Positions 1 through 29,893 of a stretch of 32,000 bases of DNA are shown here, one piece after another (position 1 is the first letter of the stretch; every line of letters begins with the position of its first letter). The DNA is from Methanobacterium sp. UBA44 (GTDB lineage: Archaea; Methanobacteriota; Methanobacteria; Methanobacteriales; Methanobacteriaceae): positions 77,433 to 109,432 of the forward strand of contig DACV01000003.1 of assembly GCA_002494885.1 (NCBI GenBank), in the 5' to 3' direction. Position numbers and translations under genes: made by a program. Below the pieces are notes generated by a model that ran no database searches, was not told where the DNA came from, and saw nothing but the letters and a program-made list of their open reading frames with translations.

Positions 1-116
1 ATGAAAACTTGCTTTTTATTTCCTGCTTTTACAATGCCCAGTTCCCCAGAATTTCCAATTAAAAACAAAATTTCATCTGGAGTTATTCTAATGCTTCTAC
101 GTTCTCTGACTGACAT
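1..116 (-). CDS. 5' end of an unidentified gene running off the window (partial)
   Basis: Hand translation of the minus strand. An ATG (complement of 114-116) opens MSVRERRSIRITPDEILFLIGNSGELGIVKAGNKKQVF with no stop down to position 1. It is absent from the ORF track because it is truncated. It overlaps the 3' end of the zinc-ribbon ORF by 34 nt, and TTG at 68 is an alternative start. No family recognised. Confidence 0.3.
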   Translation of the reverse strand, partial: MSVRERRSIRITPDEILFLIGNSGELGIVKAGNKKQVF

Positions 117-217
117 GCAGGACAAACTACTTTTCTTCCCAGTCCTTTAAATTCATTTTCACAATCAAGGCATCTGTATCTTTTTGTTTTGAGTTTTTTC
201 ATTTTAATGTCAGCCAT
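83..217 (-). CDS. Small (44 aa) CxxC...CxxC zinc-ribbon protein
   Basis: Hand translation, below the ORF-track size cutoff: MADIKMKKLKTKRYRCLDCENEFKGLGRKVVCPACQSENVEALE. It has two CxxC knuckles. GGAGGA (complement of 221-226) lies just upstream of the ATG. Stop TAA is the complement of 83-85. Confidence 0.5.
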   Translation of the reverse strand: MADIKMKKLKTKRYRCLDCENEFKGLGRKVVCPACQSENVEALE

Positions 218-5309: not shown

Positions 5310-5537
5310 ATGGTGCAATCAAAAATTTATAAAGTTTTGGATGATGCTAATGACCTTGAAAGGAAAATGGCAGATTATGTAGAAAGGGGAGAATTTAATG
5401 ACCAATTAGTGGCAAAATGGGTATTAGATACTGTTAAAATCATCGAAAGACTTGGAAAAGCAATTGAAGAAGTTGAAGACCGTTTAGATCTCCTTGAAGA
5501 ACAGGAAGAAAAAAAGGATTTCAGAATAGAAAAATAA
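5310..5537 (+). CDS. Small acidic helical protein, unknown function
   Basis: The ORF-track frame is 5301-5537. ATG at 5310 follows GGGAG (5296-5300). The sequence is charged with a heptad-like pattern (LERKMADYVERGE...IEEVEDRLDLLEEQEEKK). No family recognised. Confidence 0.5.
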   Translation: MVQSKIYKVLDDANDLERKMADYVERGEFNDQLVAKWVLDTVKIIERLGKAIEEVEDRLDLLEEQEEKKDFRIEK

Positions 5538-5558
5538 ATTCACTTATTTTCTTTTTTT
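5529..5558. terminator. Hairpin plus T7 tract between convergent genes
   Basis: GAAAA(A)TAA-ATTCAC-TTATTTTC is followed by TTTTTTT (5552-5558). On the opposite strand the same stem is followed by a T5 run. It sits between the stop at 5537 (+) and the stop at 5570 (-). Confidence 0.5.
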
Positions 5559-5569
5559 GAGTTCTTATT

Positions 5570-6400
5570 TTAATTTCTCAATCCCAATTCAATTACCATC
5601 TGTTCCGTCTTATTTTTATCAGGAATAAGATAATATATTCCATTAATGCGCTGCCCTTTACCTGTAACTAAAGCAGTTTGAGCATTATCTAGATCAAAAC
5701 CTGTAAGAACTTGTTCTATTATTGCAAATTCGTAGGGAGGAATGCTAGTGTGAGTATTTTCTCTCAACTGGTTCATAACAGAAGGTAATTTAACAATATT
5801 ACCTGGTTTTAAAGCCTCTTTGTAAATTGCTGCAAGAATTTTTTGATGTCTTTCAACCCTTCCAATGTCTCCTGCACCATCTTGTCTAAAACGTGCGTAA
5901 AGCAAAGTTTGTTCTCCATTAAGTTTATTATAACCTGCTTTTCCATTCAATTCAGGTCTAGCCGCTGCAACGTGCGGTTCAACATCAATATATACTCCAC
6001 CTAATGTATCCACTATACTCTTGAATTCATCAAAGTTTACTACAACATAATAATCTATAGATACATTCAAAAAATTCTCTACAGTCTGAACTGTCAAATT
6101 AATTCCACCTAACCCATATGCAGCGTTAATCTTATCCATACCATGTCCTTGTATATTTATTTTAGAATCCCTTGGAATAGAAAGAAGAGAAACCTTTCTT
6201 GTATTTTTATCAATAGAAAGAATAGTTATAGAGTCTGTATTTCCTGAATAAATTGAATTTTGAGCATCTCTACCTAATAGCAATATATTTATCCTTGAAC
6301 CAGTTTCATCATTAGTAACGTTAATCAGCAAGCCACCTAAAGCCAGAATTAAAATAGATATAAAAGTTACACTTATGATGACTTTTTGCCATTTTTTCAT
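5570..6400 (-). CDS. LytR-CpsA-Psr (LCP) family protein, N-terminally membrane-anchored
   Basis: N-terminal TM helix (VIISVTFISILILALGGLLI), then NILLLGRD...SDSITILSID...SLLSIPRDS...INAAYGLGG...RFRQDGAGDIGRVERHQ. These are conserved Arg/Asp motifs of the LCP domain. It lies 1 nt downstream of the preceding gene. Confidence 0.8.
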   Translation of the reverse strand: MKKWQKVIISVTFISILILALGGLLINVTNDETGSRINILLLGRDAQNSIYSGNTDSITILSIDKNTRKVSLLSIPRDSKINIQGHGMDKINAAYGLGGINLTVQTVENFLNVSIDYYVVVNFDEFKSIVDTLGGVYIDVEPHVAAARPELNGKAGYNKLNGEQTLLYARFRQDGAGDIGRVERHQKILAAIYKEALKPGNIVKLPSVMNQLRENTHTSIPPYEFAIIEQVLTGFDLDNAQTALVTGKGQRINGIYYLIPDKNKTEQMVIELGLRN

Positions 6401-6401
6401 T

Positions 6402-7067
6402 TTATTTCCCTAAATCATTTTTTAAAACTTTCAAATAATCATCATATCTATTAATGTTTATAAGTTCCAGATCACTGCGAGCTGGAACTCCATAAAAAAT
6501 AACGCCATCATTCACCATTTTTCTTAAAATAGGATTCAAATTATCATTATGTGAAGCCAAATATTTCTTTAAAAGAGTTTTATGACATACAAAAGGCATT
6601 CCAAGACCTTCTGCAGAGCCCAGATATCCTATTTTTCCCCGTGCAAGGATTGAAATTGTATTTTGAGGTTTTTCGCCTTTAAATACTCCTTTAATAAGAT
6701 TCTTTAAGGTTTCAGCTGATACTGTAGGTTGATCTGCTGCAACACAGAGACAATAATCAAATTTAATTCTTTTCACTCCATTTAGTAGAGATTCAGATAA
6801 TTCAACATTATTTTCAGGATTTTTAGTTACTTTAACTCTTTCATCATCAAATTCATCGATCACTGCAGTAATCTCATCGCTGAAATGTCCTAAAACAATA
6901 ATACAGTCTTCCACGCCGGCATTTAGGGTGTTTTTAATGGTTTGAAGTATAACCGGCATTCCATGTAAATCAAGAAGTAATTTATGCTTTATTTCCATTC
7001 CACGGCCCTTAAAATCTTCTCTCATTCGTCTATTTTTGCCCGCGGCCGTTATTATTGCAGAAACCAT
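6402..7067 (-). CDS. MobA-like nucleotidyltransferase (NTP_transf_3 type)
   Basis: N-terminal IITAAGKNRRM matches the G-x-G-x-R-M NTP-binding loop. LLLDLHGMPVI and the later VAADQPTVSAETLKNL match MobA/MocA-like GT-A fold nucleotidyltransferases. No TM segment. Confidence 0.7.
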   Translation of the reverse strand: MVSAIITAAGKNRRMREDFKGRGMEIKHKLLLDLHGMPVILQTIKNTLNAGVEDCIIVLGHFSDEITAVIDEFDDERVKVTKNPENNVELSESLLNGVKRIKFDYCLCVAADQPTVSAETLKNLIKGVFKGEKPQNTISILARGKIGYLGSAEGLGMPFVCHKTLLKKYLASHNDNLNPILRKMVNDGVIFYGVPARSDLELININRYDDYLKVLKNDLGK

Positions 7068-7105
7068 CTGATCACTCTAATTTTAAAATAAAGAAAAAGA
7101 TTTTC

Positions 7106-8311
7106 TTATTGAGGTATGTACTCTATGACTTTAGCATGTATACTCATGCTCGGTCCGGATCCCTCAGTCCACATAATTATTTTTACGGGATAATCATTGT
7201 TATTTGTAACTTTAACGTCCACTGCAGGATTAAATCCAAACATTACTGCATATTCACCCCAATTAAATCCTGTTGGCAGTCCAAATCCTGCCTGAGATAT
7301 CGCTCCCCTCATTGCTCTTGCTGCAGGGCAAACACCATGAGAAGCCCACCCCCCAGGAGCATGTGGGTCTATAGATCTTCCAAATCCTACAGTTTCCTTA
7401 CCTGATGAAGTTGAATGTGGTGGAATTACAGTTCCATTCCATGCTTCAACAAATGCTCGTGAATTTTGCTCTCTAACTGCATCGTTATATTCAGGGAAAG
7501 ATCCAAGTGAATCTCCATTACTTCCACTGACTTTTTCAGTAACGGGGCCCATATACACAAGTATCGGAGATCCTGAAGGATAATTTTTCATATAATCTAT
7601 TATGCTACTTCCAAATAAAGTTTCTATATCTTCTGGTGCAACTATATTCCTTCCATCATTGAAATTAGCAATAGCATAACCCAGAGTTATACGTTTACCC
7701 ACTTCAGCATTGTCGTACCATTTTTTAACATTCATTACGCTTATATAATCATGAGGAATTGTATCATTACTTATCTGACCATATGGCACTATATTTAAGG
7801 TTTTATTCCCTTCTACAATTTCCAAGCCCTCTTTTGTTTTAATTCCAAACTTATAAGGTATTTTTTCCCCATAAACAAAAGTTTCTGGCGGAGTTACAGC
7901 CAATCTATCACTTTTAACTTCTAAAATTCCCGGTCCCTTAAAACCCTGCGCAACTCCACTTTTTGAAATACTGCCGGACGTAATTCTCCCAATTGGAGTT
8001 TTAACCGTTCCAGTAACTATTGCATCGAAGAAGTCAATAAATCTCATATCTTCAATATAATCCCTAAGATATCCCGGATCGTAAAGTATGGGTACCTTTC
8101 TAATTTCTTTTTCATCTACAACCTTAGTTCCTGCCAGCACTGTATCTCCTATACTCATCGAAGTTATTTCAGTTGGTCCCTGAGGTGGAACATAATTGTC
8201 CATTGCCGTTCCCAAGGGATACATGACCAGCGCCAGTAAAATAAGTATTAATATACTAATCTTTGAATTTTTTAATAATTTCTGCAGAATATTTAACTCC
8301 CCCTTCCCCAA
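7106..8311 (-). CDS. Membrane-anchored extracytoplasmic protein with a VanW-like C-terminal domain
   Basis: It has an N-terminal signal-anchor (ISILILILLALVMYPLG). The C-terminal WASHGVCPAARAMRGAISQAGF...AVDVKVTNNNDYPVKIIMW resembles the VanW core (GGGVCQ...YNAALLAG...D.kf.N....P..I). Coding status is confident, but the family call rests on motifs only. The start is TTG at 8311 and is uncertain. Confidence 0.5.
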   Translation of the reverse strand: MGKGELNILQKLLKNSKISILILILLALVMYPLGTAMDNYVPPQGPTEITSMSIGDTVLAGTKVVDEKEIRKVPILYDPGYLRDYIEDMRFIDFFDAIVTGTVKTPIGRITSGSISKSGVAQGFKGPGILEVKSDRLAVTPPETFVYGEKIPYKFGIKTKEGLEIVEGNKTLNIVPYGQISNDTIPHDYISVMNVKKWYDNAEVGKRITLGYAIANFNDGRNIVAPEDIETLFGSSIIDYMKNYPSGSPILVYMGPVTEKVSGSNGDSLGSFPEYNDAVREQNSRAFVEAWNGTVIPPHSTSSGKETVGFGRSIDPHAPGGWASHGVCPAARAMRGAISQAGFGLPTGFNWGEYAVMFGFNPAVDVKVTNNNDYPVKIIMWTEGSGPSMSIHAKVIEYIPQ

Positions 8312-9788
8312 TAACTAATATTATGTCATTTTCATCAGCTGCTGAAATGGCTTTTTCTAAACTTTCTTCCACCTGATCCCTGCTTGCCCCAAGTGTTCCT
8401 ATTTTAGAGCTTTTTTTACTTGACTCTGTCAAAGTTACCTCAGAATCAATTTCAATCTCCATCAATGCATTTCTGCTTGCATTGGATGCTACTACTATAG
8501 TATCAACATCATTTAATATTTTTGCTATTTCGATATCCCCTTCAATTCCGCTTTCAGAGGATATAGTATTAACCACTATCAGTTTTGAGCTTGCAGGCTT
8601 TTCAAGAAGTAACGCCTGAATTATAGCTTTAACACCAGCAGGATTATGGGCAAAATCAACTATTATTCTTTTTCCGATGCTAAACTCTTCAAATCTACCT
8701 TTAACACCTTCAAAGCTTTCAATACCCTTTGTAATATCATCAAAATCTATATTTAATGCCATAGCGCCGCATGCAGCTGCAAGGGCATTGTAAATGTTAT
8801 GAATTCCCTTATTTTTTAATTTAATTCTGGCCTTATTTGACCCCATGATTAACGTGAATTGATCATCTTCAATATCAGAAGCTTTTACATGTACATCTGG
8901 ACGTCTAAATCCACATTTGCACCCATATACGCCAAGATGACCCAGATAATGTTTTAGATATTTAAGATTTTTCTTGCATAATGGACAATTCCTTTTTTCT
9001 GGATAGGCGTTAACAACGATATTTAAATCATCTATTCCAAAAAATAGACTATTATCCGGATTTTTTCCAATTTCAAGGCATGCAATTACAGGATCATCAG
9101 CATTTAAAATCAATAAATCAGCAACATCAATCATTTCACCTTTACACTGGATATAATCTAAAAAATTCCCCGAATTATCTAAATGATCCTTAGATATATT
9201 GGTTATGATTCCTATATTGACTCCTGAATTTACTGCAGATTTTTTAATCTCATTTGGGTTTCCAAATGTCCCTATTTCTAAAACAGCCACATCACCATCA
9301 AGTCTTGCTTGAAGAGATGGTATCAATTCCGTGTTCCCCTGTATATTAAGTCCATGTTCTGGAACTTTATATCCTGCGCCTTTTAAAATATGCTTGAGCA
9401 TCCAGGTTGTTGTTGTCTTTCCATTTGTTCCAGTTATTCCAATAACCGGTTTATCAATTTCGCATATCTCCAGAACTTCATCTACACTTATTATATCTGC
9501 CTCTGTAGATTTTTCTATTTTATCAATTAATTTAGAATTATTAAGTAAACTTGGAGCAAGAACAATGATATCTGCATCTTTTAAAATGTCTTCATCATGT
9601 TCTCCGAGATTAAGATAAATTCCCTCTTTCTTTAGGATTTCTATTTGAGGGCTATCGGTTGAAAGATCTGAAACCACTACATCTGCACCGTAATCCTTTA
9701 AAACCCTTGCCATTAAGCTGCCTACAGTTCCACAGCCTCCTATGACAACAATTTTAGGATTTTTCTTCTTAATAAAATTAGATTTCAT
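8256..9788 (-). CDS. Mur-ligase family protein, MurD-like with a Cys4 insertion (pseudomurein peptide ligase candidate)
   Basis: Rossmann-like N-domain KIVVIGGCGTVGSLMARVLKDYGADVVVSD, P-loop GITGTNGKTTT, central motif ITNISKDHLD, C-domain GVKGRFEEF...VDFAHNPAGV. The insertion is CPLC-x18-CKC (Cys268, 271, 290, 292). Confidence 0.85.
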   Translation of the reverse strand: MKSNFIKKKNPKIVVIGGCGTVGSLMARVLKDYGADVVVSDLSTDSPQIEILKKEGIYLNLGEHDEDILKDADIIVLAPSLLNNSKLIDKIEKSTEADIISVDEVLEICEIDKPVIGITGTNGKTTTTWMLKHILKGAGYKVPEHGLNIQGNTELIPSLQARLDGDVAVLEIGTFGNPNEIKKSAVNSGVNIGIITNISKDHLDNSGNFLDYIQCKGEMIDVADLLILNADDPVIACLEIGKNPDNSLFFGIDDLNIVVNAYPEKRNCPLCKKNLKYLKHYLGHLGVYGCKCGFRRPDVHVKASDIEDDQFTLIMGSNKARIKLKNKGIHNIYNALAAACGAMALNIDFDDITKGIESFEGVKGRFEEFSIGKRIIVDFAHNPAGVKAIIQALLLEKPASSKLIVVNTISSESGIEGDIEIAKILNDVDTIVVASNASRNALMEIEIDSEVTLTESSKKSSKIGTLGASRDQVEESLEKAISAADENDIILVIGEGGVKYSAEIIKKFKD

Positions 9789-9807
9789 TTTAATCTGACT
9801 GTGAATT

Positions 9808-12600
9808 TTAAGCTGTTTTATCCTTAAAAGTGGTTATACCTTCTTTAATATCTGATTTTACTTTATTATAGGCATTAACGACACCGGGACCAATATGAAT
9901 TATTGTATCGCCTTTATTTGCAATTTCCAATGCTTTAACTATTGAATCCATTACACTGGTTGTTTTATGTGTTTCTGCCTTTTCAGCTCCTTTTACCACT
10001 TCTTCTGCAGCTTCTTCGCTTATTTCTTCTATTGTTTCATTTTTTGCGCTTGCAATTACTATATCTGCATGTTTTCCAAGTATCTCGCCTATTTTATATT
10101 TATCACGTATTGTAAGGGTATCAGGATTATCTATGGATATTATTAACTTTCCTTCAAGCTCCATGCCTTCAAAAAGCCGCTCCATTGCCTCAGGATTGTG
10201 TGCTGCATCCATAAATATATTAATTTCATTGACTGTATCTATCTTTTCAAATCGTCCCTTTACTCCGGGGAAATTCTCTATTTTATCCTTTATATATTCC
10301 AGATCGAAATCTAAAGCCATGTCTGTAGCAACAACTGCTAAAGCGTTTTCAATATTGCACATTCCAGGTACTTTAAGCTTTATATTTAATATACATGGCT
10401 CCCTATATTTTCTTTCAAAATTATCGCAGTTACAGCACATCTGCCCACAATTTCTACATACTATTGTGGGGATTTTCTGAGTTTTAATGGTAAATTCAGA
10501 GCCATAAAGCCCTTTAAGTTCTATATCTTCTGCCAACATATGGTAGTCTATATTATGTCTATGAGAATAAGTTCTGCCTTCATTAACAATTATTCTGGGT
10601 TCATTAATCCCATAATATATCATTTCTTCGTTGAATTTAGGCGATAATCTACTTATAATTGGATCATCCCCATTAGCAACCAAAACTCCGTTTTTATGAA
10701 GTAAATCCTTTAATGATACGTTTCTTTCCACATATTCTTCATATGAATTAAATTCATCCATATGATCCGGTGTGAGATTGGTTAAAATACCAATACATAT
10801 TTCCAGACCATCTACCATTCTTATTGTGCCGTGCGGAAGTTCAAATACCGCAAAATCTTTACTTTTCATCTTATTTTCCACTACAAAATCAACTAAACCT
10901 TCAATAACCAGGGAATCTTGCAGGGAAGAGAAAAGTAAAGTATCGTACATATCAGATAAAGTATAATTGGCCATGTTAGCAGTAGTGGTTTTACCATCTG
11001 TCCCTGAAATACCTATCATTGGTATTTTTATCAGGGAATTAATCATTTTCCCAATGTCTCTTGTATTTATTTCGTCTATTTCATAATTTTCTTCACATTC
11101 ACCGATGAATTTCCTTATTTCAGAATTTCTAGGCACACTTGGAGAGATGAAAACCACGTCTGCCCACATTGCATGTTCATTCATGTGAGAGCCCAGTTCC
11201 ACAGTAACTCCTTTCTGCATCAAGTCCTCAATCTTTCTTTTTGCTTTTTTTGGGAGTTCTTCGAATTCTTTAATATCAGAAATAATGACTTCATTACCTA
11301 AATGGTTCAAGAGATGTGCTGCAGGCCTACCTGCATTTCCAGCCCCAACAATAAGTACTTTTTTATTCCTGATGACATTATCATCCTTTGATATTCTTTG
11401 TAGCGCTTTTTGTAGTTCTATAAGTTTATTCTGACCATTTCCACCTATGAAAATATTTTTATATATATCACTGCATTCCAATGCAAAATTAAGTACAGAA
11501 TCAGTGTCTTTAATTATCTTTATTTCCCCAGTATAGCCTTCCTCTTTTAATTTTTTAAATGCAATACCTGTTGTATCCTCAAGACCAGGAAAAAGTACTA
11601 TAATATCTGGATCTGTCCTAGCAACTTCTCCTAAAATGTCAAATCGGCATGTTTCACTTTCTCTGGGAGTACCAATTATTGCTACGTCAAATTCTAACTC
11701 ATTAAAAACCGCTGCAGCCGCATCCAGATTATCGGTTTTACCAACTACAAAATTGCAGCCAGAAATGTTTATGGTTGCTGTTCTGCCCTTAACTCCCTTA
11801 AAGTTCTCAAGTGCATTATTAATTTCATTTTCGGGAATTTCTAAGATATTTGCAACGGTTGCAGCTGCTGCTGCATTTTGTAAATTAAATTGGCCAAATA
11901 ATTTAAGATTTCTATGTCCATTTTCAAAAAAGAAGGTTTGAACAGGATAATTTCCCATCTTTGACAAAATTTTATCCTTTTCATTTAATACTGCTATTTT
12001 TCCTTCTATAAATTTGCCCAGAGATGCTTTATAATTATCGATGGAACTATGGAAGTCCATGTGATCCATTCCCATATTGGTTACAACCACCAGATCAAAA
12101 TCAAATGCATATGAACAAAAATCAAGGGTCATATCACATACTTCCACCACAATAACGTCGTATTTTTGTTTTGAAGATTCTAATATGAGTTTTGTATATC
12201 CCTGAAAGCCTCCACCTGCATTTCCACCAACAAGAACGTTAAGGCCAGCTTTTTCAAGTATCTCCCGTATCATAAAGCATGTTGTTGTTTTACCGTTGGT
12301 ACCTGTAACGCCTATTGTAAAAACAGTTTTATGATCGGCCAAAATATCAGATAAAATTTTTTTACTGGATCTTAATTTTTCCCCGATTTTACTACTCCAT
12401 AAGCTCGGACTTAAAACAACTGCATCTGCAGAATTTATCTTTTCAAAATCATGATAGCCAAAATCAACATCTATCGCCGTATTACAATTCAATTCCATAT
12501 TTTTTTGCATATCAGAAGCATAAACTTTATATCCATAATTAATCAGAGATTTAACGGCATTTCTGCCCTCAGTTCCTAATCCAACCACTGCAATTTTCAT
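9808..12600 (-). CDS. Tandem fusion of two complete Mur-ligase modules (930 aa)
   Basis: Module 1, about aa 1-410: KIAVVGLGTEGRNAV...YASD, GVTGTNGKTTT, VTNMGMDHMD, GVKGRTA. Module 2, about aa 411-930: KVLIVGAGNAGRPAAHLL...ISD, GISGTDGKTTT, LTNLTPDHMD, CRNCGQMCCNC, GVKGRFEKI...MDAAHNPEA. It is a single uninterrupted ORF. Confidence 0.85.
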   Translation of the reverse strand: MKIAVVGLGTEGRNAVKSLINYGYKVYASDMQKNMELNCNTAIDVDFGYHDFEKINSADAVVLSPSLWSSKIGEKLRSSKKILSDILADHKTVFTIGVTGTNGKTTTCFMIREILEKAGLNVLVGGNAGGGFQGYTKLILESSKQKYDVIVVEVCDMTLDFCSYAFDFDLVVVTNMGMDHMDFHSSIDNYKASLGKFIEGKIAVLNEKDKILSKMGNYPVQTFFFENGHRNLKLFGQFNLQNAAAAATVANILEIPENEINNALENFKGVKGRTATINISGCNFVVGKTDNLDAAAAVFNELEFDVAIIGTPRESETCRFDILGEVARTDPDIIVLFPGLEDTTGIAFKKLKEEGYTGEIKIIKDTDSVLNFALECSDIYKNIFIGGNGQNKLIELQKALQRISKDDNVIRNKKVLIVGAGNAGRPAAHLLNHLGNEVIISDIKEFEELPKKAKRKIEDLMQKGVTVELGSHMNEHAMWADVVFISPSVPRNSEIRKFIGECEENYEIDEINTRDIGKMINSLIKIPMIGISGTDGKTTTANMANYTLSDMYDTLLFSSLQDSLVIEGLVDFVVENKMKSKDFAVFELPHGTIRMVDGLEICIGILTNLTPDHMDEFNSYEEYVERNVSLKDLLHKNGVLVANGDDPIISRLSPKFNEEMIYYGINEPRIIVNEGRTYSHRHNIDYHMLAEDIELKGLYGSEFTIKTQKIPTIVCRNCGQMCCNCDNFERKYREPCILNIKLKVPGMCNIENALAVVATDMALDFDLEYIKDKIENFPGVKGRFEKIDTVNEINIFMDAAHNPEAMERLFEGMELEGKLIISIDNPDTLTIRDKYKIGEILGKHADIVIASAKNETIEEISEEAAEEVVKGAEKAETHKTTSVMDSIVKALEIANKGDTIIHIGPGVVNAYNKVKSDIKEGITTFKDKTA

Positions 12601-13320
12601 ATTACCTACCGATATTAATATAATCTTAAAGGTTATTATGACTTAATTTAATAATGACTTTTAAAATAGATTTATAATAAAGATATTTAACTGTAACGCT
12701 TATTTTTTCCAAGTAGACTATTATGATGTCATTTTATTTATAAATTCATAAAATTACACCTGATTTTATTATTAATAAATCTATTTTTACCCATTAAATT
12801 AATTTAATAATCCATTTGTTCTCAATAACTTCACTTCTCTGTTATTAATTTAGTCAATAATAATAATAAATCTTTTGATAGTATTACTATGTAGATGTAA
12901 TCATACAGACCAAACAAATATTAGTGATAATTATTATTCACACCATATAAATGTTTTAATTCATTATAATGGGAATTATTTTGCAAAAAAATAAAAATTT
13001 TTTATATTCTTATGTGATTGTGAATTAACCACTCTCTTTTATATGTCCATACTAAATAAAAGAATATCTTCTGAAAACATTAATCCAGTTAAAGAGTAGA
13101 TATACTTTTAACTCAAGTAAATATTGCTTAAAAAAAGCAGATAGTCTTTTTAAAATAATTAAAGCATCTATTAAAATCTAATAAAAATATAAACAGCAAT
13201 TATATAAAATGCAATAAACAATATCTAATTAAATAATAATTTTTCAATTAATATATCATTCTAAATTTTAAGGATTTAATGAACAGCAAGCGTAAGATCA
13301 AATCATAATAAGGTGACATA

Positions 13321-18184: not shown

Positions 18185-19639
18185 TTGGGAATCGGAGGCG
18201 GTATAATTACGAAGAAATTGCTTTTTGCAGCCCTATTAATATCCAGTCTATTCCTGTCTGGTATAGCTGGTGTAAGCGCAACAGACGCGGAAACTGCAGA
18301 AATACAGTCTGATAATAGCAGTACTGTACAAGAAAAGGCAGATATAGAGATAAATAATACAGATAATGTAGATAAATCGGCTACAACGCAAAATCCAGCC
18401 GATGAAAGTGTAAAAACAGTGAAAAATACAGGTACTCCTAAGGCAAGTACTAAAACTAATCAAACCACAACTGAAACAGAGTCAACCACACAAGACACAG
18501 TAAGTACAGATGTTGATAAAACAACAGAATCTCAAACAGTACCATCAACAGATTCAGCCAGCCAAGATTCAACAGATACAGAAACGAAAGACGTAGATCA
18601 AACTGCAAATGCAGAAAATTCAGTGCCTACATCTCCAGATACAGCAAATAATACCACAAACACTCAAGAAAAATTAGCCGCAGCAGGAGAAACAAAAACT
18701 CCGGCAAGCTTTACTGTAAGTCAAATTAACGATGCAGCAGCTAGAGTCAAAGCATTCATTGAAACCAACAAGAGACTTCCAAAATATGTGACAATTGGTA
18801 CAAGTCAAGTTACAATGCCTGACTTTCTGAAACTACTCAGTGCAGGATTACTACAGATAAATAGTGGGAAAACAGCACCAATAACGCTTAAAAATGTGAA
18901 TACTCCTGTAAAACCAAGTGAAAGTATTAAAAGCGGGAACATATATAAAGCTGGCTATTTGGACCTTGCTAAAAGAGTTAACGCATTTATAGATGCAAAT
19001 GGTAGACTGCCAAATTATACAAGCAGTAATCTTGGTAAACTAACCTATGAATCTTTAATTTATATGTTCTCCCGGGTACTTAACTTCCAGAAAGAAAATA
19101 ACAGATTACCGAATTATGTAGCGGTAAAGCCATGGAGTACCATTGGAACCTCAAGTACAGGAGGAACAACACCAGTTCCAGTACCTGCAGAGTTACAACA
19201 GTATCTTAAAGCTACATCAAATTGCCAAGTTACCAATGCACAAATCAAGTCGCTAACAGCATCGATAACAAATGGTAAAACTTCCACGTACGATAAAGCT
19301 GCGGCAATATTCAACTGGGTAAGGAATAACATAGGTTACTCCTTCTATTACAATACTAAAAAAGGAGCTACAGGTACTTTAAGTGCAAAAACAGCGAATT
19401 GCTGTGATACTGCTCACCTGTTAATAGCTCTTCAAAGAGCAGCAGGAATTCCAGCAAGATATGTCCATGCTAATGCTAAATTCACAAGCGGTAACACTTA
19501 TGGGCACGTTTGGGCAGAAGTGTATGTAAACGGTAAATGGTACACCGCAGATGCAACCAGCTCAAGAAACACATTTGGTGTTGTAAAAAGCTGGACTTCA
19601 GCAACAATAAAAGGGAGATACGCATCATTACCATTCTAA
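18185..19639 (+). CDS. Secreted protein: signal peptide, Thr/Ser/Asp-rich linker, 3 pseudomurein-binding repeats and a transglutaminase/Pei-like cysteine-protease-fold domain
   Basis: Signal-like KKLLFAALLISSLFLSGIAGVSA. Low-complexity T/S/D/N/Q linker at about 18290-18700. Three repeats end in RLPKYV, RLPNYT and RLPNYV (about 18710-19136). The C-terminal core NCCDTAHLLIALQRAAGIPARYV...GHVWAEVYVNGKWYTADAT carries Cys406/407 (19400-19405), His441 (19505-19507) and Asp456 (19550-19552). The start codon is uncertain (TTG 18185, ATT 18206 or TTG 18218). Confidence 0.8.
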   Translation: MGIGGGIITKKLLFAALLISSLFLSGIAGVSATDAETAEIQSDNSSTVQEKADIEINNTDNVDKSATTQNPADESVKTVKNTGTPKASTKTNQTTTETESTTQDTVSTDVDKTTESQTVPSTDSASQDSTDTETKDVDQTANAENSVPTSPDTANNTTNTQEKLAAAGETKTPASFTVSQINDAAARVKAFIETNKRLPKYVTIGTSQVTMPDFLKLLSAGLLQINSGKTAPITLKNVNTPVKPSESIKSGNIYKAGYLDLAKRVNAFIDANGRLPNYTSSNLGKLTYESLIYMFSRVLNFQKENNRLPNYVAVKPWSTIGTSSTGGTTPVPVPAELQQYLKATSNCQVTNAQIKSLTASITNGKTSTYDKAAAIFNWVRNNIGYSFYYNTKKGATGTLSAKTANCCDTAHLLIALQRAAGIPARYVHANAKFTSGNTYGHVWAEVYVNGKWYTADATSSRNTFGVVKSWTSATIKGRYASLPF

Positions 19640-19668: not shown

Positions 19669-20046
19669 ATGATTAAAAAATCAATAGTTGCATTAGTAGT
19701 AATTGTAGCAGCAGCAGCCATGGTATTCGGCGCTTCAAACTACACACATTCTGCTATTGACAATTCTAACCCGGAACAGAAAGATTCATCTACTGATAAC
19801 AATACACGCAGCAATGCATCAGACGATAGCACAAATGAGACAAAAATATCTCCAGCAAAAGCCCAGGAAATAGCCCAAAAATACATTGAAGAGCCAGGAA
19901 CAACTGCTGGAACGCCAAAATTGATTAAAACAAATGGTCAATACATATATGTCGTTCCTGTAATAGATAATGGCACAACTGTTGGAGAAATAAACATAGA
20001 TGCAATAAATGGAAAAAATGTTGGGGGTGCAGGAGGAGCACCTTAA
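19669..20046 (+). CDS. Membrane-anchored PepSY-domain protein
   Basis: N-terminal TM helix IVALVVIVAAAAMVF. The C-terminal ISPAKAQEIAQKYI...KTNGQYIYVVPVIDNGTTVGEINIDAINGKNVG matches the PepSY pattern. It lies 29 nt after the upstream gene, with AAGAGG before the ATG. Confidence 0.65.
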   Translation: MIKKSIVALVVIVAAAAMVFGASNYTHSAIDNSNPEQKDSSTDNNTRSNASDDSTNETKISPAKAQEIAQKYIEEPGTTAGTPKLIKTNGQYIYVVPVIDNGTTVGEINIDAINGKNVGGAGGAP

Positions 20047-25212: not shown

Positions 25213-25524
<312 letters not shown>

Positions 25525-25551
25525 ATGATCACCTCAATATTTTAAAATCAT

Positions 25552-25630
25552 TCAAAATCGTAGATTTTGGAGCGCAAAACAGAGTTTTGCTGGCTTCGAT
25601 TTTGATGCCCTGCAAAAACTTAGTTTCTGC
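25552..25630. repeat. Tandem array of 3-4 hairpins (locus c) between the L10 and P1 genes
   Basis: 25553-25569: CAAAATC-GTA-GATTTTG, 7 bp perfect. 25574-25590: GCAAAAC-AGA-GTTTTGC, 7 bp perfect. 25592-25609: GGC.TC/GA.GCC, weak. 25612-25630: GCAAAAA-CTTAG-TTTCTGC, one mismatch. Confidence 0.75.
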
Positions 25631-25651
25631 CGGTTTAATTTATAATTAAGA

Positions 25652-26656
25652 TTAGCCAAACAAGGCACCTAACCCTGCTGCTGCATCTTCTTCTTTATCT
25701 TCTTCCTCTTCTTCGTCTTCTTTATCTTCTTCTTTATCTTCCTCTTTAACTTCAACAGCCTTTGGGCGTGATTTCAGTTTTTCCAGAAGTTCATCATCAA
25801 GTGCTTCTTCATTTTTAGCTGATAAATCAGATGCTAATGCTAACATCTGTGAGTAAGCCTTGGATAACAGTAAATCTGTTGTTTTAGATGTAAGTATCTC
25901 AGCATTTAATGCCAGATTCATTGCTTTAGTTTGAGCATTCATTATTATGAGATCCATTGTCTCTTTAGTGTATATAGATGCATTTACTGAAAGATTCAAT
26001 GCTCTCCGGAATGCATTTTGTATATCTGACAATGTTTTCTCTTCATCTATTGTTAGAAGATCAGATGTGTAAATTGCTTCATCTTCATATGCTGCTACTA
26101 AGTCAATTCCAACTTCCATTGGTTGGATGTCAAGTCTTGTAAGAATACTTGCCACATCTCGAGGAACTGCTTCTCCCTCTGCAACAATTACCATATCCTT
26201 GGTTATAACAATTTTTCCTTTTTCAATTTTAGCAGGAATACCTACTTTTTGGAGTTCTCCAAGAATAGGGCCTGGATTAAAAGCAGTGTCACCTTTAGGC
26301 ACTACAATATCTGATGGAGCTATGCTTCCAGCTTTTGCCGGTGCTGCAGTTTTACTAGCTTCAAGAATCTTGAAGAGTTTAAACGGATTCATATCCGTAA
26401 AGATCAATGCTGGTTGACCTTCCATATGTTCACCGAGTGCATCTATATTAGATTTTTCAGATTCACTCAAAGCTAAGCTCATCAATGTTTTTCTTGACAT
26501 CTTAATGACTGTAGTGTCCTTCAAGCTCTGCCGCATTTTCTGAAGCTGAGGAGCCGGTATATCTGCCAGATTAGCCATGCCCACCACATTGTGAGTTTTA
26601 ATAAGCTCTTTGATGTCATTTACCTCTTCTTTTTTCCATTCAGCAACATGAGCCAT
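25652..26656 (-). CDS. rpl10: 50S ribosomal protein L10 (P0)
   Basis: 334 aa. [13 protein letters not shown]-terminus and an acidic C-terminal tail ending [10 protein letters not shown]. Its ATG overlaps the L1 stop (TAATG). Confidence 0.9.
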
Positions 26657-27294
26657 TAGATCACCCTCGCTACTGGACCCATTGTTGTTTTAATATACAT
26701 GGATTTTATCTGGTTTCTTCCTTTCTCCAGTTTTCTGTCTAAAATTCCAAGGACAGCTTCCACGTTATCTGCAATTAGCTCATCATCCATATCCTGGGAA
26801 CCAATAATTGCCTGGATAACTGGTTGATCCTTTATTCTAACTTTTACTGTATTGTTAAGTCTTTCCATTATTGGATCTGGTTTTATAGACGCTGGAACTG
26901 GTTTTGGCATCTTTTTTCGAGGCCCAAGGACTGGTCCTAAAAATCTACCCACTTGAGGCATCATATCTGCCTGCGCAACAAAAAATGTGTATTCATTAGC
27001 CATTTTTTTGGCCTGTTTCCGGTCTTTTCCAAGATCTTCTAAATCCTGTTTGTTGATTACAAGATCTGCACCGGCATTTTTTGCCTGAACTGCCAGTTCA
27101 CCATCTGCTATAAAGGCAATTTTAATGCCTTTACCTCGTCCATTTGGAAGGAAGACTTCTTCATCAAATCTGTTTTCTGGTTTTTTCACGTCTAAATCTT
27201 TGATATTTATAACAACATCTATAGACTGTGTGAAGTTTCTCGGCTTAGATTCACTCTTAGCCTTCTTCACCGCTTCCAATATCTCTTGATTCAT
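26656..27294 (-). CDS. rpl1: 50S ribosomal protein L1
   Basis: [33 protein letters not shown]... is typical of L1. The ATG (complement of 27292-27294) sits 6 nt after GGAGG. The ORF-track TTG at 27297 is one codon upstream. Confidence 0.9.
27230..27270 (-). promoter_or_regulatory. L1-binding autoregulatory mRNA structure inside the 5' end of the L1 gene
   Basis: The minus strand reads GUGAAGAAGGCUAAGAGUGAAUCUAAGCCGAGAAACUUCAC. It forms helix GUGAAG/CUUCAC, helix GGCU/AGCC plus AGA/UCU, and an asymmetric loop GAGAAA. As I recall it, this nearly matches the Methanococcus vannielii L1 mRNA operator (GUGAAGGAGGCU...AAGCCGAGAAACUUCAC). It starts 24 nt after the ATG. Confidence 0.6.
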
Positions 27295-27391
27295 CAAATT
27301 CCTCCATGAACTTCTTTGATAAAAAGTTCACAATAATTGATTAGTTAATCAAATGGATTATTCTGGTCAATTTAATAATAAAATTTATTTT

Positions 27392-28314
<923 letters not shown>

Positions 28315-28741: not shown

Positions 28742-29893
28742 TTAAAAAACACCATCTATAAATTCTTCTAAAGCTGATTCCTTGACTGGTTCTTTAGTTT
28801 CCTCCTCCATATACTCGCGTTCTGCAGGTACACCGAATATATGAGGTGATTTCACTCCAGCTACTACAAGGGTTGTTCTGATAACATTCTGGAGCTCTTC
28901 CTGTATCTGAGTACCCCATATTATGTTTGCATCTGGATCCAATTCATCAGCAACTATCTGAACAATCTTTTCAGCCTCATGTAATGTTAGATCTGAGCTT
29001 CCGGATATGTTTATCAGGGCGCCTTTAGCATTTGAAATGTCCAGATCAAGTAATGGACTGTTTAATGCTTCATGTACTGACTCTATTGCTCTATCACCAG
29101 ATTCAGATTCACCCATACCTATCATTGCCATTCCAGATTCTTTCATTATGCTTCTAATGTCTGCAAAATCAAGAGCTACGAGACCGGGCTTTGTGATAAG
29201 TTCTGTTATTCCTTTAACAGCTCTTCCCAGAAGTTCGTCTGTAACCATGAAAGCTTTATTTATTGGTAGATTTGGTGCTACTTCCAGTAATTTATCATTA
29301 GGTATTACAATAACGGTATCTGCTGAACTCTGGAGCTTATCTAAACCTTTCTCAGCATTTTCGCGTCTTCGAAGTCCTTCAGCGCTGAAAGGCATTGTTG
29401 CAACAGCAATTGTTAGTGCACCAATCTTTTTGGCCAGGTTTGCAATAACTGGAGCAGATCCTGTTCCAGTACCTCCACCAAGCCCACATGTTACAAAAAC
29501 CATGTCAGCTCCTTCTAGCCTTTCTTTTATCTGTTCTTCGCTCTCTTCTGCGCTTTGCTCACCTATTTCAGGTATACCTCCAGCGCCAAGCCCACCACAT
29601 GTTCCTTTACCTATCAATATCTTCTGATGTGAGTTTGAATAGAAAAGATCCTGAGCATCAGTGTTTACACTAATTGTATCTGCTCCTTCTATTCCTATTT
29701 CCATTAACCTCGAAACTGTATTATTTCCAGCCCCTCCAGTTCCAACAACCAATATCTTAGCCTTGCTTTCTTCTATGATATTTTGTAAGTCACTGTTAAT
29801 ATCCGATATATCGATGCTATTTTGTATATCATTAGGTCTTCTCTCTCTTCTCACTTCTGATTCTTTTAAGGTATTATTTATAAGAGATTTCAA
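28742..29893 (-). CDS. ftsZ: Cell division GTPase FtsZ
   Basis: [10 protein letters not shown], the tubulin signature [18 protein letters not shown], and T7-loop region [10 protein letters not shown]. Confidence 0.95.

Follow-up and report, generated by a model that had tools for sequence, protein, structure and literature searches.

The question raised by this locus is whether five closely packed minus-strand genes, located within the 32,000-nucleotide stretch of Methanobacterium sp. UBA44 DNA analysed here (the window), constitute a new candidate module for pseudomurein assembly, as the first-pass annotation had proposed, and whether the genes other than the ligases could supply missing steps. 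The described gene layout, with successive intergenic gaps of 19, -56, 38 and 1 nt, agrees exactly with the ORF coordinates (Table 1), and we infer that the five genes form a single transcript. The AT-rich region upstream was likewise found as described; it contained no Rfam family and no tRNA, and is presumed to be the promoter region for both the operon and the divergent hypD. Of the hairpin and T-tract reported downstream, the T-tracts are present, inside the 3'-terminal part of the convergent gene, and are a possible archaeal termination signal, but the hairpin folds at -7 kcal/mol, no better than shuffled sequence (z = -0.02), and a terminator scan of the region downstream of the LCP gene found nothing. 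A further T5 tract lies within the PmurA-PmurB spacer, such that transcription attenuation could occur there. The same five-gene arrangement, with an identical LCP, recurs on 15 contigs that come from several samples and independent assemblies, indicating that it is not an assembly artefact.

Table 1. Positions of the features discussed, numbered from the first letter of the window
Feature	Position	Strand	Basis or detail
pMurD2::pMurD1 fusion gene, 930 aa	9808..12600	minus	ORF; two complete Mur-ligase modules, one polypeptide
pMurD2 module, aa 1-400	11401..12600	minus	NCBIfam pMurD2, 661 bits (cut-off 550); P-loop GVTGTNGKT
pMurD1-like module, aa 414-924	9829..11361	minus	P-loop GISGTDGKT
pMurC gene, pseudomurein peptide ligase, 510 aa	8256..9788	minus	NCBIfam and Pfam
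PmurA gene (Mfer335 family), 401 aa, TTG start	7106..8311	minus	NCBIfam
PmurA transmembrane anchor, aa 18-37	8201..8260	minus	ISILILILLALVMYPLGTAM
PmurA VanW-like C-terminal domain, aa 277-401	7109..7483	minus	hhalign, weak Pfam
PmurA invariant H325-G326-x-C328 motif	7328..7339	minus	C328 at 7328-7330; H325 at 7337-7339
PmurB gene (Mfer334 family), MobA-like nucleotidyltransferase, 221 aa	6402..7067	minus	NCBIfam and Pfam
LCP (LytR-CpsA-Psr) family glycopolymer transferase gene, 276 aa	5570..6400	minus	Pfam
LCP N-terminal anchor, aa 4-26	6323-6391	minus	hydrophobic, positive charge on N-side
720-bp AT-rich intergenic region, operon versus divergent hypD	12601..13320		GC 0.22-0.27
Downstream T-tracts	5505..5569	minus	T5 at 5530-5534, T7 at 5509-5515

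The locus is the Methanobacterium copy of a pseudomurein wall-peptide gene cluster that has already been described, namely 'Gene Cluster 1' (Subedi 2021; Mfer340/337/336/335/334), which is the same as 'cluster B' (Lupo 2025) (PMC10117817, PMC11915815), with pMurD2, pMurD1, pMurC, Mfer335/PmurA and Mfer334/PmurB in the same order. The NCBIfam equivalog cut-offs were passed for pMurD2, pMurC, PmurA and PmurB, with the pMurD1-like module falling under its own. The assignment to pseudomurein therefore holds, whereas the novelty of the module does not, since every gene except that for LCP belongs to the published cluster and is covered by curated NCBIfam models, and the core was thus already known. 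Relative to that cluster, the lineage-specific features are the fusion of pMurD2 and pMurD1 into one protein and the addition of an LCP gene directly past PmurB, LCP having no mention in either of the two cluster papers. In a synteny survey of 80 Methanobacteriales loci, the PmurA-PmurB pair was present in essentially all and adjacent wherever the locus was long enough, with cluster types D2-A-B (49 loci) and D2-D1-C-A-B (about 24 loci) represented. Synteny is therefore conserved for the four-gene core, especially this pair, but not for all five genes, as LCP follows PmurB in just 3/80 loci. The earlier interpretation is accordingly supported in part, and the reading that we hold with good confidence is of a known pseudomurein cluster with fused pMurD2/pMurD1, an appended LCP gene, PmurA as a proposed extracytoplasmic acyl-transferase and LCP as a probable wall-polymer transferase.

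The expected three Mur modules in two ligase genes were recovered by Pfam, as Mur_ligase_M (twice), Mur_ligase_C and MurD-like_N in the fusion protein and Mur_ligase_M/C in pMurC (NCBIfam pMurC 596 bits; cut-off 560), and by three P-loops, one per module (the two in Table 1 and GITGTNGKT). The second module of the fusion contains a Cys-rich insert (CRNCGQMCCNCD...) and has pMurD1 as its best NCBIfam match, at 423 bits against a cut-off of 610. Fusion of the two pMurD modules was seen in 11 related Methanobacterium loci, with 11 related loci keeping them as separate genes, and fused pMurD modules have been described for Methanobrevibacter and Methanothermobacter. According to the literature, pMurC adds Ala or Thr, and pMurD1 and pMurD2 are assigned the other additions apart from those by pMurE, which is encoded away from this locus. 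The MobA-like nucleotidyltransferase was also confirmed (Pfam NTP_transf_3, E 7e-19), with a match to NCBIfam Mfer334_fam of 330 bits (cut-off 260). Its proposed role in nucleotide activation is not a vacant one, contrary to the first-pass annotation, as this step had previously been assigned to Mfer334/PmurB and the activity reported (PMC12996149); assays of both PmurB and pMurC date from 2026, and the PmurB product is given in the literature as the UDP-activated glutamate starter.

PmurA (NCBIfam Mfer335_fam 534 bits, cut-off 400; AlphaFold2 model pLDDT 90.2) begins with a signal-anchor, continues with a beta-rich N-domain of 230 residues without a detectable relative, and ends in a VanW-like domain. 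A search of 1.84 billion proteins returned 66 hits, of which 65 were family members or fragments and the other a spurious NHL-repeat protein, and the family is restricted to pseudomurein methanogens, universal among them and single-copy. The TTG start is supported by the N-terminus M-G-K-G-E-L-N-I-L, which is kept in ATG-starting homologues, and by the recurrence of the approximately 50-nt PmurA/pMurC overlap in relatives. The anchor is a hydrophobic segment of 18-20 residues, conserved in the family and preceded by K/R, and across 62 full-length family members the mean K+R count is 2.58 on the N-side versus 0.69 on the C-side, indicating an N-in/C-out orientation and, as for LCP with its own anchor, agreeing with the predicted extracytoplasmic location. 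This orientation argues against the published proposal of a cytoplasmic, ATP-dependent PmurA (glutamate kinase or phosphoryl-transferase) that makes phosphorylated glutamate for PmurB (Subedi 2021, Cha 2026). In favour of that proposal are the constant adjacency of PmurB to PmurA, the first pathway steps being without an assigned enzyme, and one published report in which recombinant M. ruminantium PMurA turned ATP into ADP and AMP; however, the predicted product Glu-P went undetected in the published assay, no kinase or NTPase family was hit, with no P-loop, ATP-grasp or kinase family match at E values up to 10, and the '0 TM' predictions for PmurA stem from automated gene calls that begin at M30 and so remove the anchor helix. 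We regard a cytoplasmic kinase as very unlikely.

The VanW-like call for the C-terminal domain did not reach the Pfam threshold (E 0.025, 14.5 bits versus a cut-off of 27), or any other curated one, but did gain support from profile-profile comparison. The weak VanW hit is the only Pfam hit of the PmurA encoded here and the only one to recur within the family (11/31 members), and it strengthens to E 0.002 against the family consensus. Alignment of PmurA with a diverse VanW-domain alignment by hhalign gave a probability of 80% (P 1.4e-5, score 36.5) over 102 columns, collinear across the whole domain, with C328 of PmurA falling on the VanW catalytic Cys. It is conceivable that this likeness reflects chance or convergence of short Cys-helix and beta-strand motifs, PmurA having its own pseudomurein-specific fold, given the sub-threshold Pfam scores, the 19% identity over aligned columns, the non-significant hhalign result with a narrow VanW alignment (P 0.12-0.29) and the failure of HMMER to reach any bacterial VanW from PmurA in the same 1.84 billion proteins. 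We consider this improbable, as the hhalign score exceeds all controls (reversed 12.8; block-shuffled mean 14.1 and maximum 24.8 of 100, with the same maximum in 200 shuffles; eight unrelated families 13.6-18.1) and is stable across PmurA subsets (31.7-37.8), and as a VanW HMM search of 2,665 ORFs placed PmurA orthologues in all of the top 25 positions. Further, independent AlphaFold2 models of PmurA and VanW share the same order of secondary-structure elements (helix, strand, strand, (hairpin), Cys-capped helix, three C-terminal strands). Together these sequence comparisons support the C-terminal ~125 residues of PmurA as a diverged VanW-type domain, a point which is new relative to the published cluster.

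A diverged VanW-type, i.e. cysteine transpeptidase-like, domain makes PmurA a testable candidate for the pseudomurein cross-linking enzyme, and its earlier nomination for this missing step is judged reasonable. Like the VanW-domain L,D-transpeptidases (C. difficile Ldt4/Ldt5; PF04294; Bollinger et al. 2024), PmurA is N-terminally anchored with an extracytoplasmic C-terminal catalytic-type domain, aligns collinearly with them over ~100 residues, and shares with VanW domains a Cys that N-caps the central helix, as well as the motifs N-x-x-N, N-G, P, A-G, P-x-G and (V/F)-x-N. It differs in lacking the PG4 or G5 accessory domains, in having an invariant His at Cys-3 (H-G-x-C-P) where VanW has G-G-G-x-C-Q, and in a substrate that would be an all-L, isopeptide-containing stem rather than mDAP-D-Ala. 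A deletion in PmurA covers the positions of the VanW His (ER..HS) and of the Asp (G.DATV), such that the canonical triad is not conserved; H325 and C328 are proposed instead as the catalytic pair, and these residues along with G326, P329 and R332 are invariant in 131/131 family members, including a Methanopyrus-like one. PmurA would then be an extracytoplasmic cysteine acyl-transferase on pseudomurein peptides, anchored through a single N-terminal helix and with most of the protein external, in which the helix-capping Cys may, by analogy with the VanW L,D-transpeptidases, form a thioacyl intermediate with the stem peptide, the acyl group then going to an amine on an adjacent stem (cross-linking) or, for trimming, to water.

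A less probable, though still plausible, reading is that the VanW-like domain is real and serves in hydrolysis or remodelling (carboxypeptidase, endopeptidase or autolysin) or in non-catalytic wall binding, with PMBR/transglutaminase-like proteins cross-linking the wall. Transglutaminase-like proteins are preferred for that role in the literature, and a protein with three PMBR (pseudomurein-binding) repeats and a transglutaminase core is encoded at 18185-19639, 5.6 kb away; certain bacterial VanW proteins are without LDT activity and Cys mutants keep carboxypeptidase activity, and PmurA lacks the canonical His and Asp. Against this, the invariance of H-G-x-C-P and R332 from Methanobacteriales to the Methanopyrus-like member argues for catalysis over binding alone, and PmurA is single-copy, universal and restricted, within a synthesis cluster, whereas transglutaminase-like genes are numerous and unclustered. 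For PmurA as an acyl-transferase, a counterpart may be proposed in ftsI of the bacterial dcw cluster (ftsI among murE-murF-mraY-murD), where cytoplasmic Mur ligases are similarly co-encoded with a membrane-anchored extracytoplasmic enzyme acting on the exported product, although the outer enzyme there has a PBP fold and, unlike in dcw, MraY and pMurE of these archaea are in a separate cluster.

The LCP call was secure (Pfam LytR_cpsA_psr 147 bits, E 6e-43; PDB TagV, 3nxh/6uf3, E 3e-38). As in the B. subtilis wall-glycopolymer ligases TagT/TagU/TagV, there is a full-length Pfam and TIGR domain match, an N-terminal anchor and conservation of the motifs PRD, KIN, RFR.D and GR..RH, but the protein falls short of the TagU, LytR and Cps2A equivalog cut-offs, and none of the 120 archaeal orthologues has the Arg of the bacterial G-R-S-D-S motif, all having Y, N or F at that position. 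The acceptor, murein MurNAc for bacterial LCP, must here be pseudomurein, and we infer that outside the cell LCP would most likely transfer a polyprenyl-diphosphate-linked glycopolymer to the pseudomurein glycan. Its rarity after PmurB indicates a lineage-specific addition to a variable slot, and the gain of a wall-polymer ligase gene in this lineage only is likewise new. Somewhat favoured is the view that LCP is a passenger in this slot, tied to pseudomurein peptide synthesis only through the same wall: close relatives have either nothing or DUF2254 genes in the slot (M. oryzae has no LCP there), the LCP in one other locus (L001) looks frameshifted, and orthologues elsewhere are either alone or beside a glycopolymer locus, those of M. 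formicicum and M. subterraneum adjoining Bac_transf, two GT2, an ABC-2 exporter and a UDP-sugar dehydrogenase. Set against this are the 1-nt spacing from PmurB, which implies co-transcription here, and the stability of the arrangement across contigs and samples; LCP is thus probably co-transcribed with the cluster in this lineage while not being a conserved member of it.

The five closely packed minus-strand genes proposed in the first-pass annotation correspond exactly to ORFs found in the window, with intergenic gaps, in order, of 19, -56, 38 and 1 nt. Several independent assemblies yielded contigs, 15 in all, that share this arrangement and encode an identical LCP. The nearest homologues of the operon proteins were from Methanobacterium. 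NCBIfam models were matched above their cut-offs by pMurD2 (gene 1, aa 1-400; 661 bits, cut-off 550), pMurC (gene 2; 596 bits, cut-off 560), the "Mfer335 family protein PmurA" (gene 3; 534 bits, cut-off 400) and the Mfer334 family "pseudomurein biosynthesis protein PmurB" (gene 4; 330 bits, cut-off 260), the last being a MobA-like NTP transferase (Pfam NTP_transf_3, PF12804; 69 bits, cut-off 27). For the second module of gene 1 (aa 414-924), pMurD1 was the best-matching family and the positional orthologue, and since its 423 bits fall under the curated cut-off of 610 (NF053646 equivalog) it is referred to as pMurD1-like. Zinc-ribbon-like, Cys-rich inserts occur in the pMurD1-like module (CRNCGQMCCNCDNFERKYREPC) and in pMurC (CPLCKKNL...GCKCGFRRPD), recalling the Cys4 ribbon of MurT, and the insert may be the reason for the sub-cut-off score of the former.

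Features of the window and secondary-structure elements shared by the PmurA and VanW models
Feature	Position	Strand	Basis
Gene 1, pMurD2::pMurD1-like fusion, 930 aa	12600-9808	-	ORF
Gene 2, pMurC, 510 aa	9788-8256	-	ORF
Gene 3, PmurA, 401 aa, TTG start	8311-7106	-	ORF
PmurA-PmurB spacer, 38 nt	7068-7105	-	
Gene 4, PmurB, 221 aa	7067-6402	-	ORF
Gene 5, LCP, 276 aa	6400-5570	-	ORF
AT-rich region upstream of operon, 720 bp	12601-13320		
Acidic coiled-coil-like ORF, 78 aa	5301-5537	+	
Transglutaminase-like protein with PMBR, 484 aa	18185-19639	+	
PepSY-domain protein, after the 484-aa protein gene	19669-20046		
Spt5/NusG-L11-L1-L10-P1 ribosomal protein cluster	25213-28314	-	
FtsZ	28742-29893	-	
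Helix	PmurA 277-291, VanW 65-82		AlphaFold2 models
Strand	PmurA 294-296, VanW 85-87		AlphaFold2 models
Strand	PmurA 300-302, VanW 92-94		AlphaFold2 models
Hairpin, reduced in PmurA	between strand 300-302 and Cys-capped helix		AlphaFold2 models
Cys-capped helix	PmurA 327-340, VanW 127-139		AlphaFold2 models
Three C-terminal strands	PmurA 367-370, 376-383, 390-400; VanW 177-181, 188-194, 198-205		AlphaFold2 models

Adjacent PmurA and PmurB genes accompanied by a C/D-type pseudomurein Mur ligase identify the operon as "Pseudomurein biosynthesis Gene Cluster 1", defined by Subedi et al. 2021 (PMC10117817) from M. fervidus Mfer340, 337, 336, 335 and 334, in exactly the gene order of the window. The earlier reading of these genes as a pseudomurein module therefore stands, but the module is a known one. 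Its annotated fusions were remarked on by Subedi et al. 2021, and it reappears as cluster B, with mention of Mur-alpha/beta fusions, in Lupo et al. 2025 (PMC11915815). Likewise out of date is the view that nucleotide activation lacks an assigned enzyme, as Mfer334 had been proposed as a nucleotidyl-transferase (PMC10117817) and PMurB was assayed, along with PMurC and PMurE, by Cha et al. 2026 (PMC12996149). Apart from the reading of PmurA proposed here, the four non-LCP genes are ordinary and already annotated.

To examine conservation, six modules were mapped across 80 Methanobacteriales loci surrounding PmurA homologues. PmurA and PmurB were adjacent in every locus where the contig permits, with pMurD2 or pMurD2-pMurD1-pMurC upstream, the shorter pMurD2-PmurA-PmurB type accounting for 49 loci and the longer pMurD2-pMurD1-pMurC-PmurA-PmurB type for about 24; pMurD2 and pMurD1 were fused in 11 loci, comprising the clade of the window, and separate in 11. 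The cluster is flanked by TldD-HAD-HypD on one side and by the 78-aa ORF, DUF169 and PcrB on the other, while the slot after PmurB is variable, being empty in M. oryzae and others, occupied by DUF2254 genes in some and by LCP in few. Of the co-conserved five-gene synteny anticipated earlier, the association of PmurA-PmurB with Mur ligases was thus retained throughout, but LCP directly followed PmurB in only three of the 80 loci (L001, L008 and L012). LCP does not belong to the conserved set of synthesis genes, and its 1-nt coupling to PmurB is lineage-specific.

Subedi et al. 2021 described Mfer335 as limited to pseudomurein methanogens and as carrying an N-terminal membrane insertion domain. 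Consistent with the former, an HMMER profile search with PmurA of 1.84 billion representative proteins returned 66 matches at E<=1e-3, of which 65 are members of the family or fragments of members, including a single Methanopyrus-like one, and the remaining match (P0305) is a spurious NHL-repeat protein. All named PmurA homologues were from Methanobacteriales. One MAG labelled "Methanomicrobiales archaeon" (GCA_049975245.1; loci L035 and L100) encodes both PmurA and a Methanobacterium-type LCP, and is for that reason almost certainly a mislabelled Methanobacteriales genome.

The TTG start of PmurA is supported by conservation of the N-terminus it encodes in homologues starting with ATG, and by relatives in which the gene likewise overlaps the preceding ligase gene by approximately 50 nt. 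A hydrophobic segment close to this N-terminus (aa 18-37 of the window protein) is conserved across the family, with a mean of 2.58 K+R on its N-side vs 0.69 on its C-side across 62 full-length members, and the opposite pattern in flanking acidic residues. The segment is accordingly predicted from residue composition to act as a signal anchor of N-in/C-out orientation. In automated annotation the window protein begins at the internal ATG of M30 (8224; 372 aa) and not at the conserved upstream TTG (401 aa), losing the transmembrane helix, as also happens in loci L103-L106. Such gene calls are probably the cause of the "0 TM" entry tabulated in PMC11915815 and of the published "0 TM"/cytoplasmic predictions for the family. 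The predicted topology bears on the published proposal that PmurA is a cytoplasmic glutamate kinase, as ATP-dependent phosphorylation of glutamate in the cytoplasm is out of reach for a domain outside the cell. PMurA has been assayed as such a kinase (PMC12996149), but in this sole direct assay ATP breakdown alone was seen and no Glu-phosphate, and no kinase or NTPase family in Pfam matched the protein at E up to 10.

At that same threshold the only Pfam match of the window PmurA was VanW (PF04294; E 0.025, 14.5 bits, aa 362-385), which was matched by 11 of 31 diverse members, far above any other family, and by the family consensus at E 0.002 (18 bits), all of these scores remaining below the Pfam gathering score of 27 bits. 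The HMMER profile search yielded no link to bacterial VanW proteins among the 1.84 billion sequences. Alignments were then compared by hhalign, using a VanW set gathered with a query whose matches carry PF04294 tags, confirming them as genuine VanW proteins. Against a narrow vanB-type alignment the result was non-significant (P 0.29 and 0.12), with the PmurA Cys already placed on the VanW Cys, and only after 16 diverse plasmid VanW genes from Bacillota, Actinomycetota, Deinococcota and Pseudomonadota had been added was significance reached, PmurA aa 270-401 aligning over 102 collinear columns with a score of 36.5 (Prob 80%, P 1.4e-5). Controls scored lower: 12.8 for the reversed alignment, a maximum of 24.8 for 100 block-shuffles (mean 14.1, sd 3.2), a maximum of 22.6 for 100 column-shuffles, 15.9 for the PmurA N-domain, 14.8 for LCP and 13.6-18.1 for eight unrelated real families. 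Random or distant-only subsets of the PmurA family retained scores of 31.7-37.8, and when the 2,665 ORFs of the loci were ranked with an HMM built from the widened VanW alignment, PmurA orthologues took the first 25 places.

Independent AlphaFold2 models of PmurA (pLDDT 90.2) and one VanW protein (pLDDT 78.7) agree in the succession of their secondary-structure elements when followed along the hhalign alignment (table). Foldseek, run with the PmurA model on PDB and BFVD, returned nothing at E<=1e-3, which is uninformative given that the PDB has no VanW fold, and sequence-profile searching of the PDB produced nothing above noise. For the 230-residue N-terminal ectodomain, neither the accessory N-terminal domains found in bacterial VanW proteins nor any Pfam family proved similar. 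The VanW-like call for gene 3 in the first-pass annotation is hence borne out by the widened comparison against its controls, and the alignments and models together indicate that the C-terminal domain of PmurA is probably VanW-like. The literature searched contained no relevant paper on VanW or LCP together with pseudomurein, and the accessible part of PMC7203096 makes no mention of VanW; a text match to "VanW" in PMC9635834 proved to be the author name Vanwonterghem. To our knowledge, neither the VanW-likeness of PmurA nor a cross-linking role for it has been published in this literature.

VanW L,D-transpeptidases have a Cys-His-Asp triad in which the Cys is needed for transpeptidation (Bollinger 2024, PMC11348318). 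C328 of PmurA aligns on this Cys and is invariant in all 131 members, including the Methanopyrus-like one, as is the surrounding motif H325-G326-x-C328-P329 followed by R332. The VanW His and Asp are absent from the homologous PmurA positions, the ER..HS and G.DATV segments falling in a PmurA deletion, and because of this failure of the canonical triad PmurA is not assigned to the VanW family in the Pfam sense. D315, present in 129 of 131 members, was considered as the triad acid but rejected, as the Methanopyrus-like member has Val there. On these residue patterns, the domain appears best described as diverged VanW-like with a re-built Cys/His centre. C328 would attack a stem-peptide bond to form a thioacyl enzyme, from which the acyl group would pass either to the amine of a neighbouring stem, giving a cross-link, or to water, giving trimming.

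We know of no pseudomurein cross-linking enzyme that has been identified. In the bacterial dcw cluster ftsI lies among mur genes, paralleling the position of PmurA in the pseudomurein cluster. The cross-linking role earlier suggested for gene 3 survives as a candidate, given the VanW-likeness, outward topology signals and invariant Cys/His. Judged from sequence, it is somewhat probable that PmurA acts on pseudomurein peptides as a catalytic Cys enzyme; that it is specifically the cross-linking transpeptidase can be put forward only tentatively by analogy, and the full proposal of an archaeal, extracytoplasmic, Cys-dependent "L,L-transpeptidase" that cross-links pseudomurein through a catalytic domain distantly related to the bacterial VanW L,D-transpeptidase domain, its active site re-built around H-G-x-C-P, is similarly speculative. 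The main competitor is that the cross-links are made by a transglutaminase-like family, which is favoured in the literature and is unclustered. The window encodes one such protein 5.6 kb from the operon, carrying three pseudomurein-binding repeats (PMBR) and a transglutaminase-like core; this 484-aa protein weakly matches Pei pseudomurein endoisopeptidase (Peptidase_C71) and belongs to the family proposed for pseudomurein cross-linking or recycling. The external orientation, invariant Cys/His and VanW-related domain of PmurA constitute a concrete alternative to the published proposals. If PmurA does perform the cross-linking, the glutamate kinase and transglutaminase assignments would both be wrong, and pseudomurein assembly would share ancestry with bacterial murein enzymes in its last step as well as in its Mur ligase steps. 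Being universal in and exclusive to pseudomurein methanogens, PmurA may also represent a selective target against rumen and gut methanogens.

The final gene of the operon is a full-length match to LytR_cpsA_psr (PF03816; 147 bits, cut-off 24.6) and TIGR00350 (132 bits, cut-off 62.3), with an N-terminal anchor (hydrophobic aa 4-26, three K/R on the N-side) preceding the extracytoplasmic domain. Among candidate Arg and Asp residues of the diphosphate-binding site, R77, D78, R170, R172, D174, R181 and R184 do not vary across 120 archaeal orthologues. Tyr, Asn or Phe stands in place of the Arg of the bacterial G-R-S-D-(S/T) motif in 120/120 Methanobacterium-type LCPs (aa 54 in the window, nt 6239-6241), which may be a sign of a different donor or acceptor. 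Orthologues are widespread in Methanobacterium (52-58% identity, 275 aa). In M. formicicum and M. subterraneum (loci L081 and L101; 8001-16300) they adjoin a Bac_transf initiating transferase, two GT2 genes, a CARDB protein, an ABC-2 type exporter and a UDP-sugar dehydrogenase, a layout resembling a wall-teichoic-acid-like pathway, and in M. movens and M. alkalithermotolerans LCP is alone. By analogy with TagT/U/V and from the glycopolymer-locus context of these orthologues, the most likely role of LCP is ligation of a polymer carried on polyprenyl diphosphate to pseudomurein. Their proximity to such loci suggests, again by analogy, that Methanobacterium may decorate its pseudomurein with a covalently attached secondary polymer, of which we know of no prior description. 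In the closest MAG (L001, 12123-12949; 83% identity) LCP appears split into two frames near its 3' end, which would make it a pseudogene unless a long-read sequencing error is the cause.

Upstream of the operon, the AT-rich region (GC 22-27%) is bounded on its other side by divergent hypD, and scans for Rfam families and tRNAs across the window, this region included, gave no match. A sigma-70 promoter scan, of no relevance to an archaeon, gave a count of 57, within about 2.4 sd of the shuffle mean of 42.5. The hairpin previously described downstream was not upheld, as the 68 nt past the stop have a folding energy of -7 kcal/mol, in line with shuffled sequence (z = -0.02), and a terminator scan found nothing there, leaving T-tracts alone. 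Within the operon, the PmurA-PmurB spacer carries a T-rich run, TCTTTTTCTTTATTTT, directly before the PmurB ribosome-binding site, which could be an archaeal oligo-T attenuator. Elsewhere in the window, FtsZ and the ribosomal protein cluster have no obvious tie to the wall operon. The 78-aa ORF convergent with LCP, with 32 nt between the stop codons, has no Pfam match and is conserved beside DUF169 in most related loci (35-92% identity).
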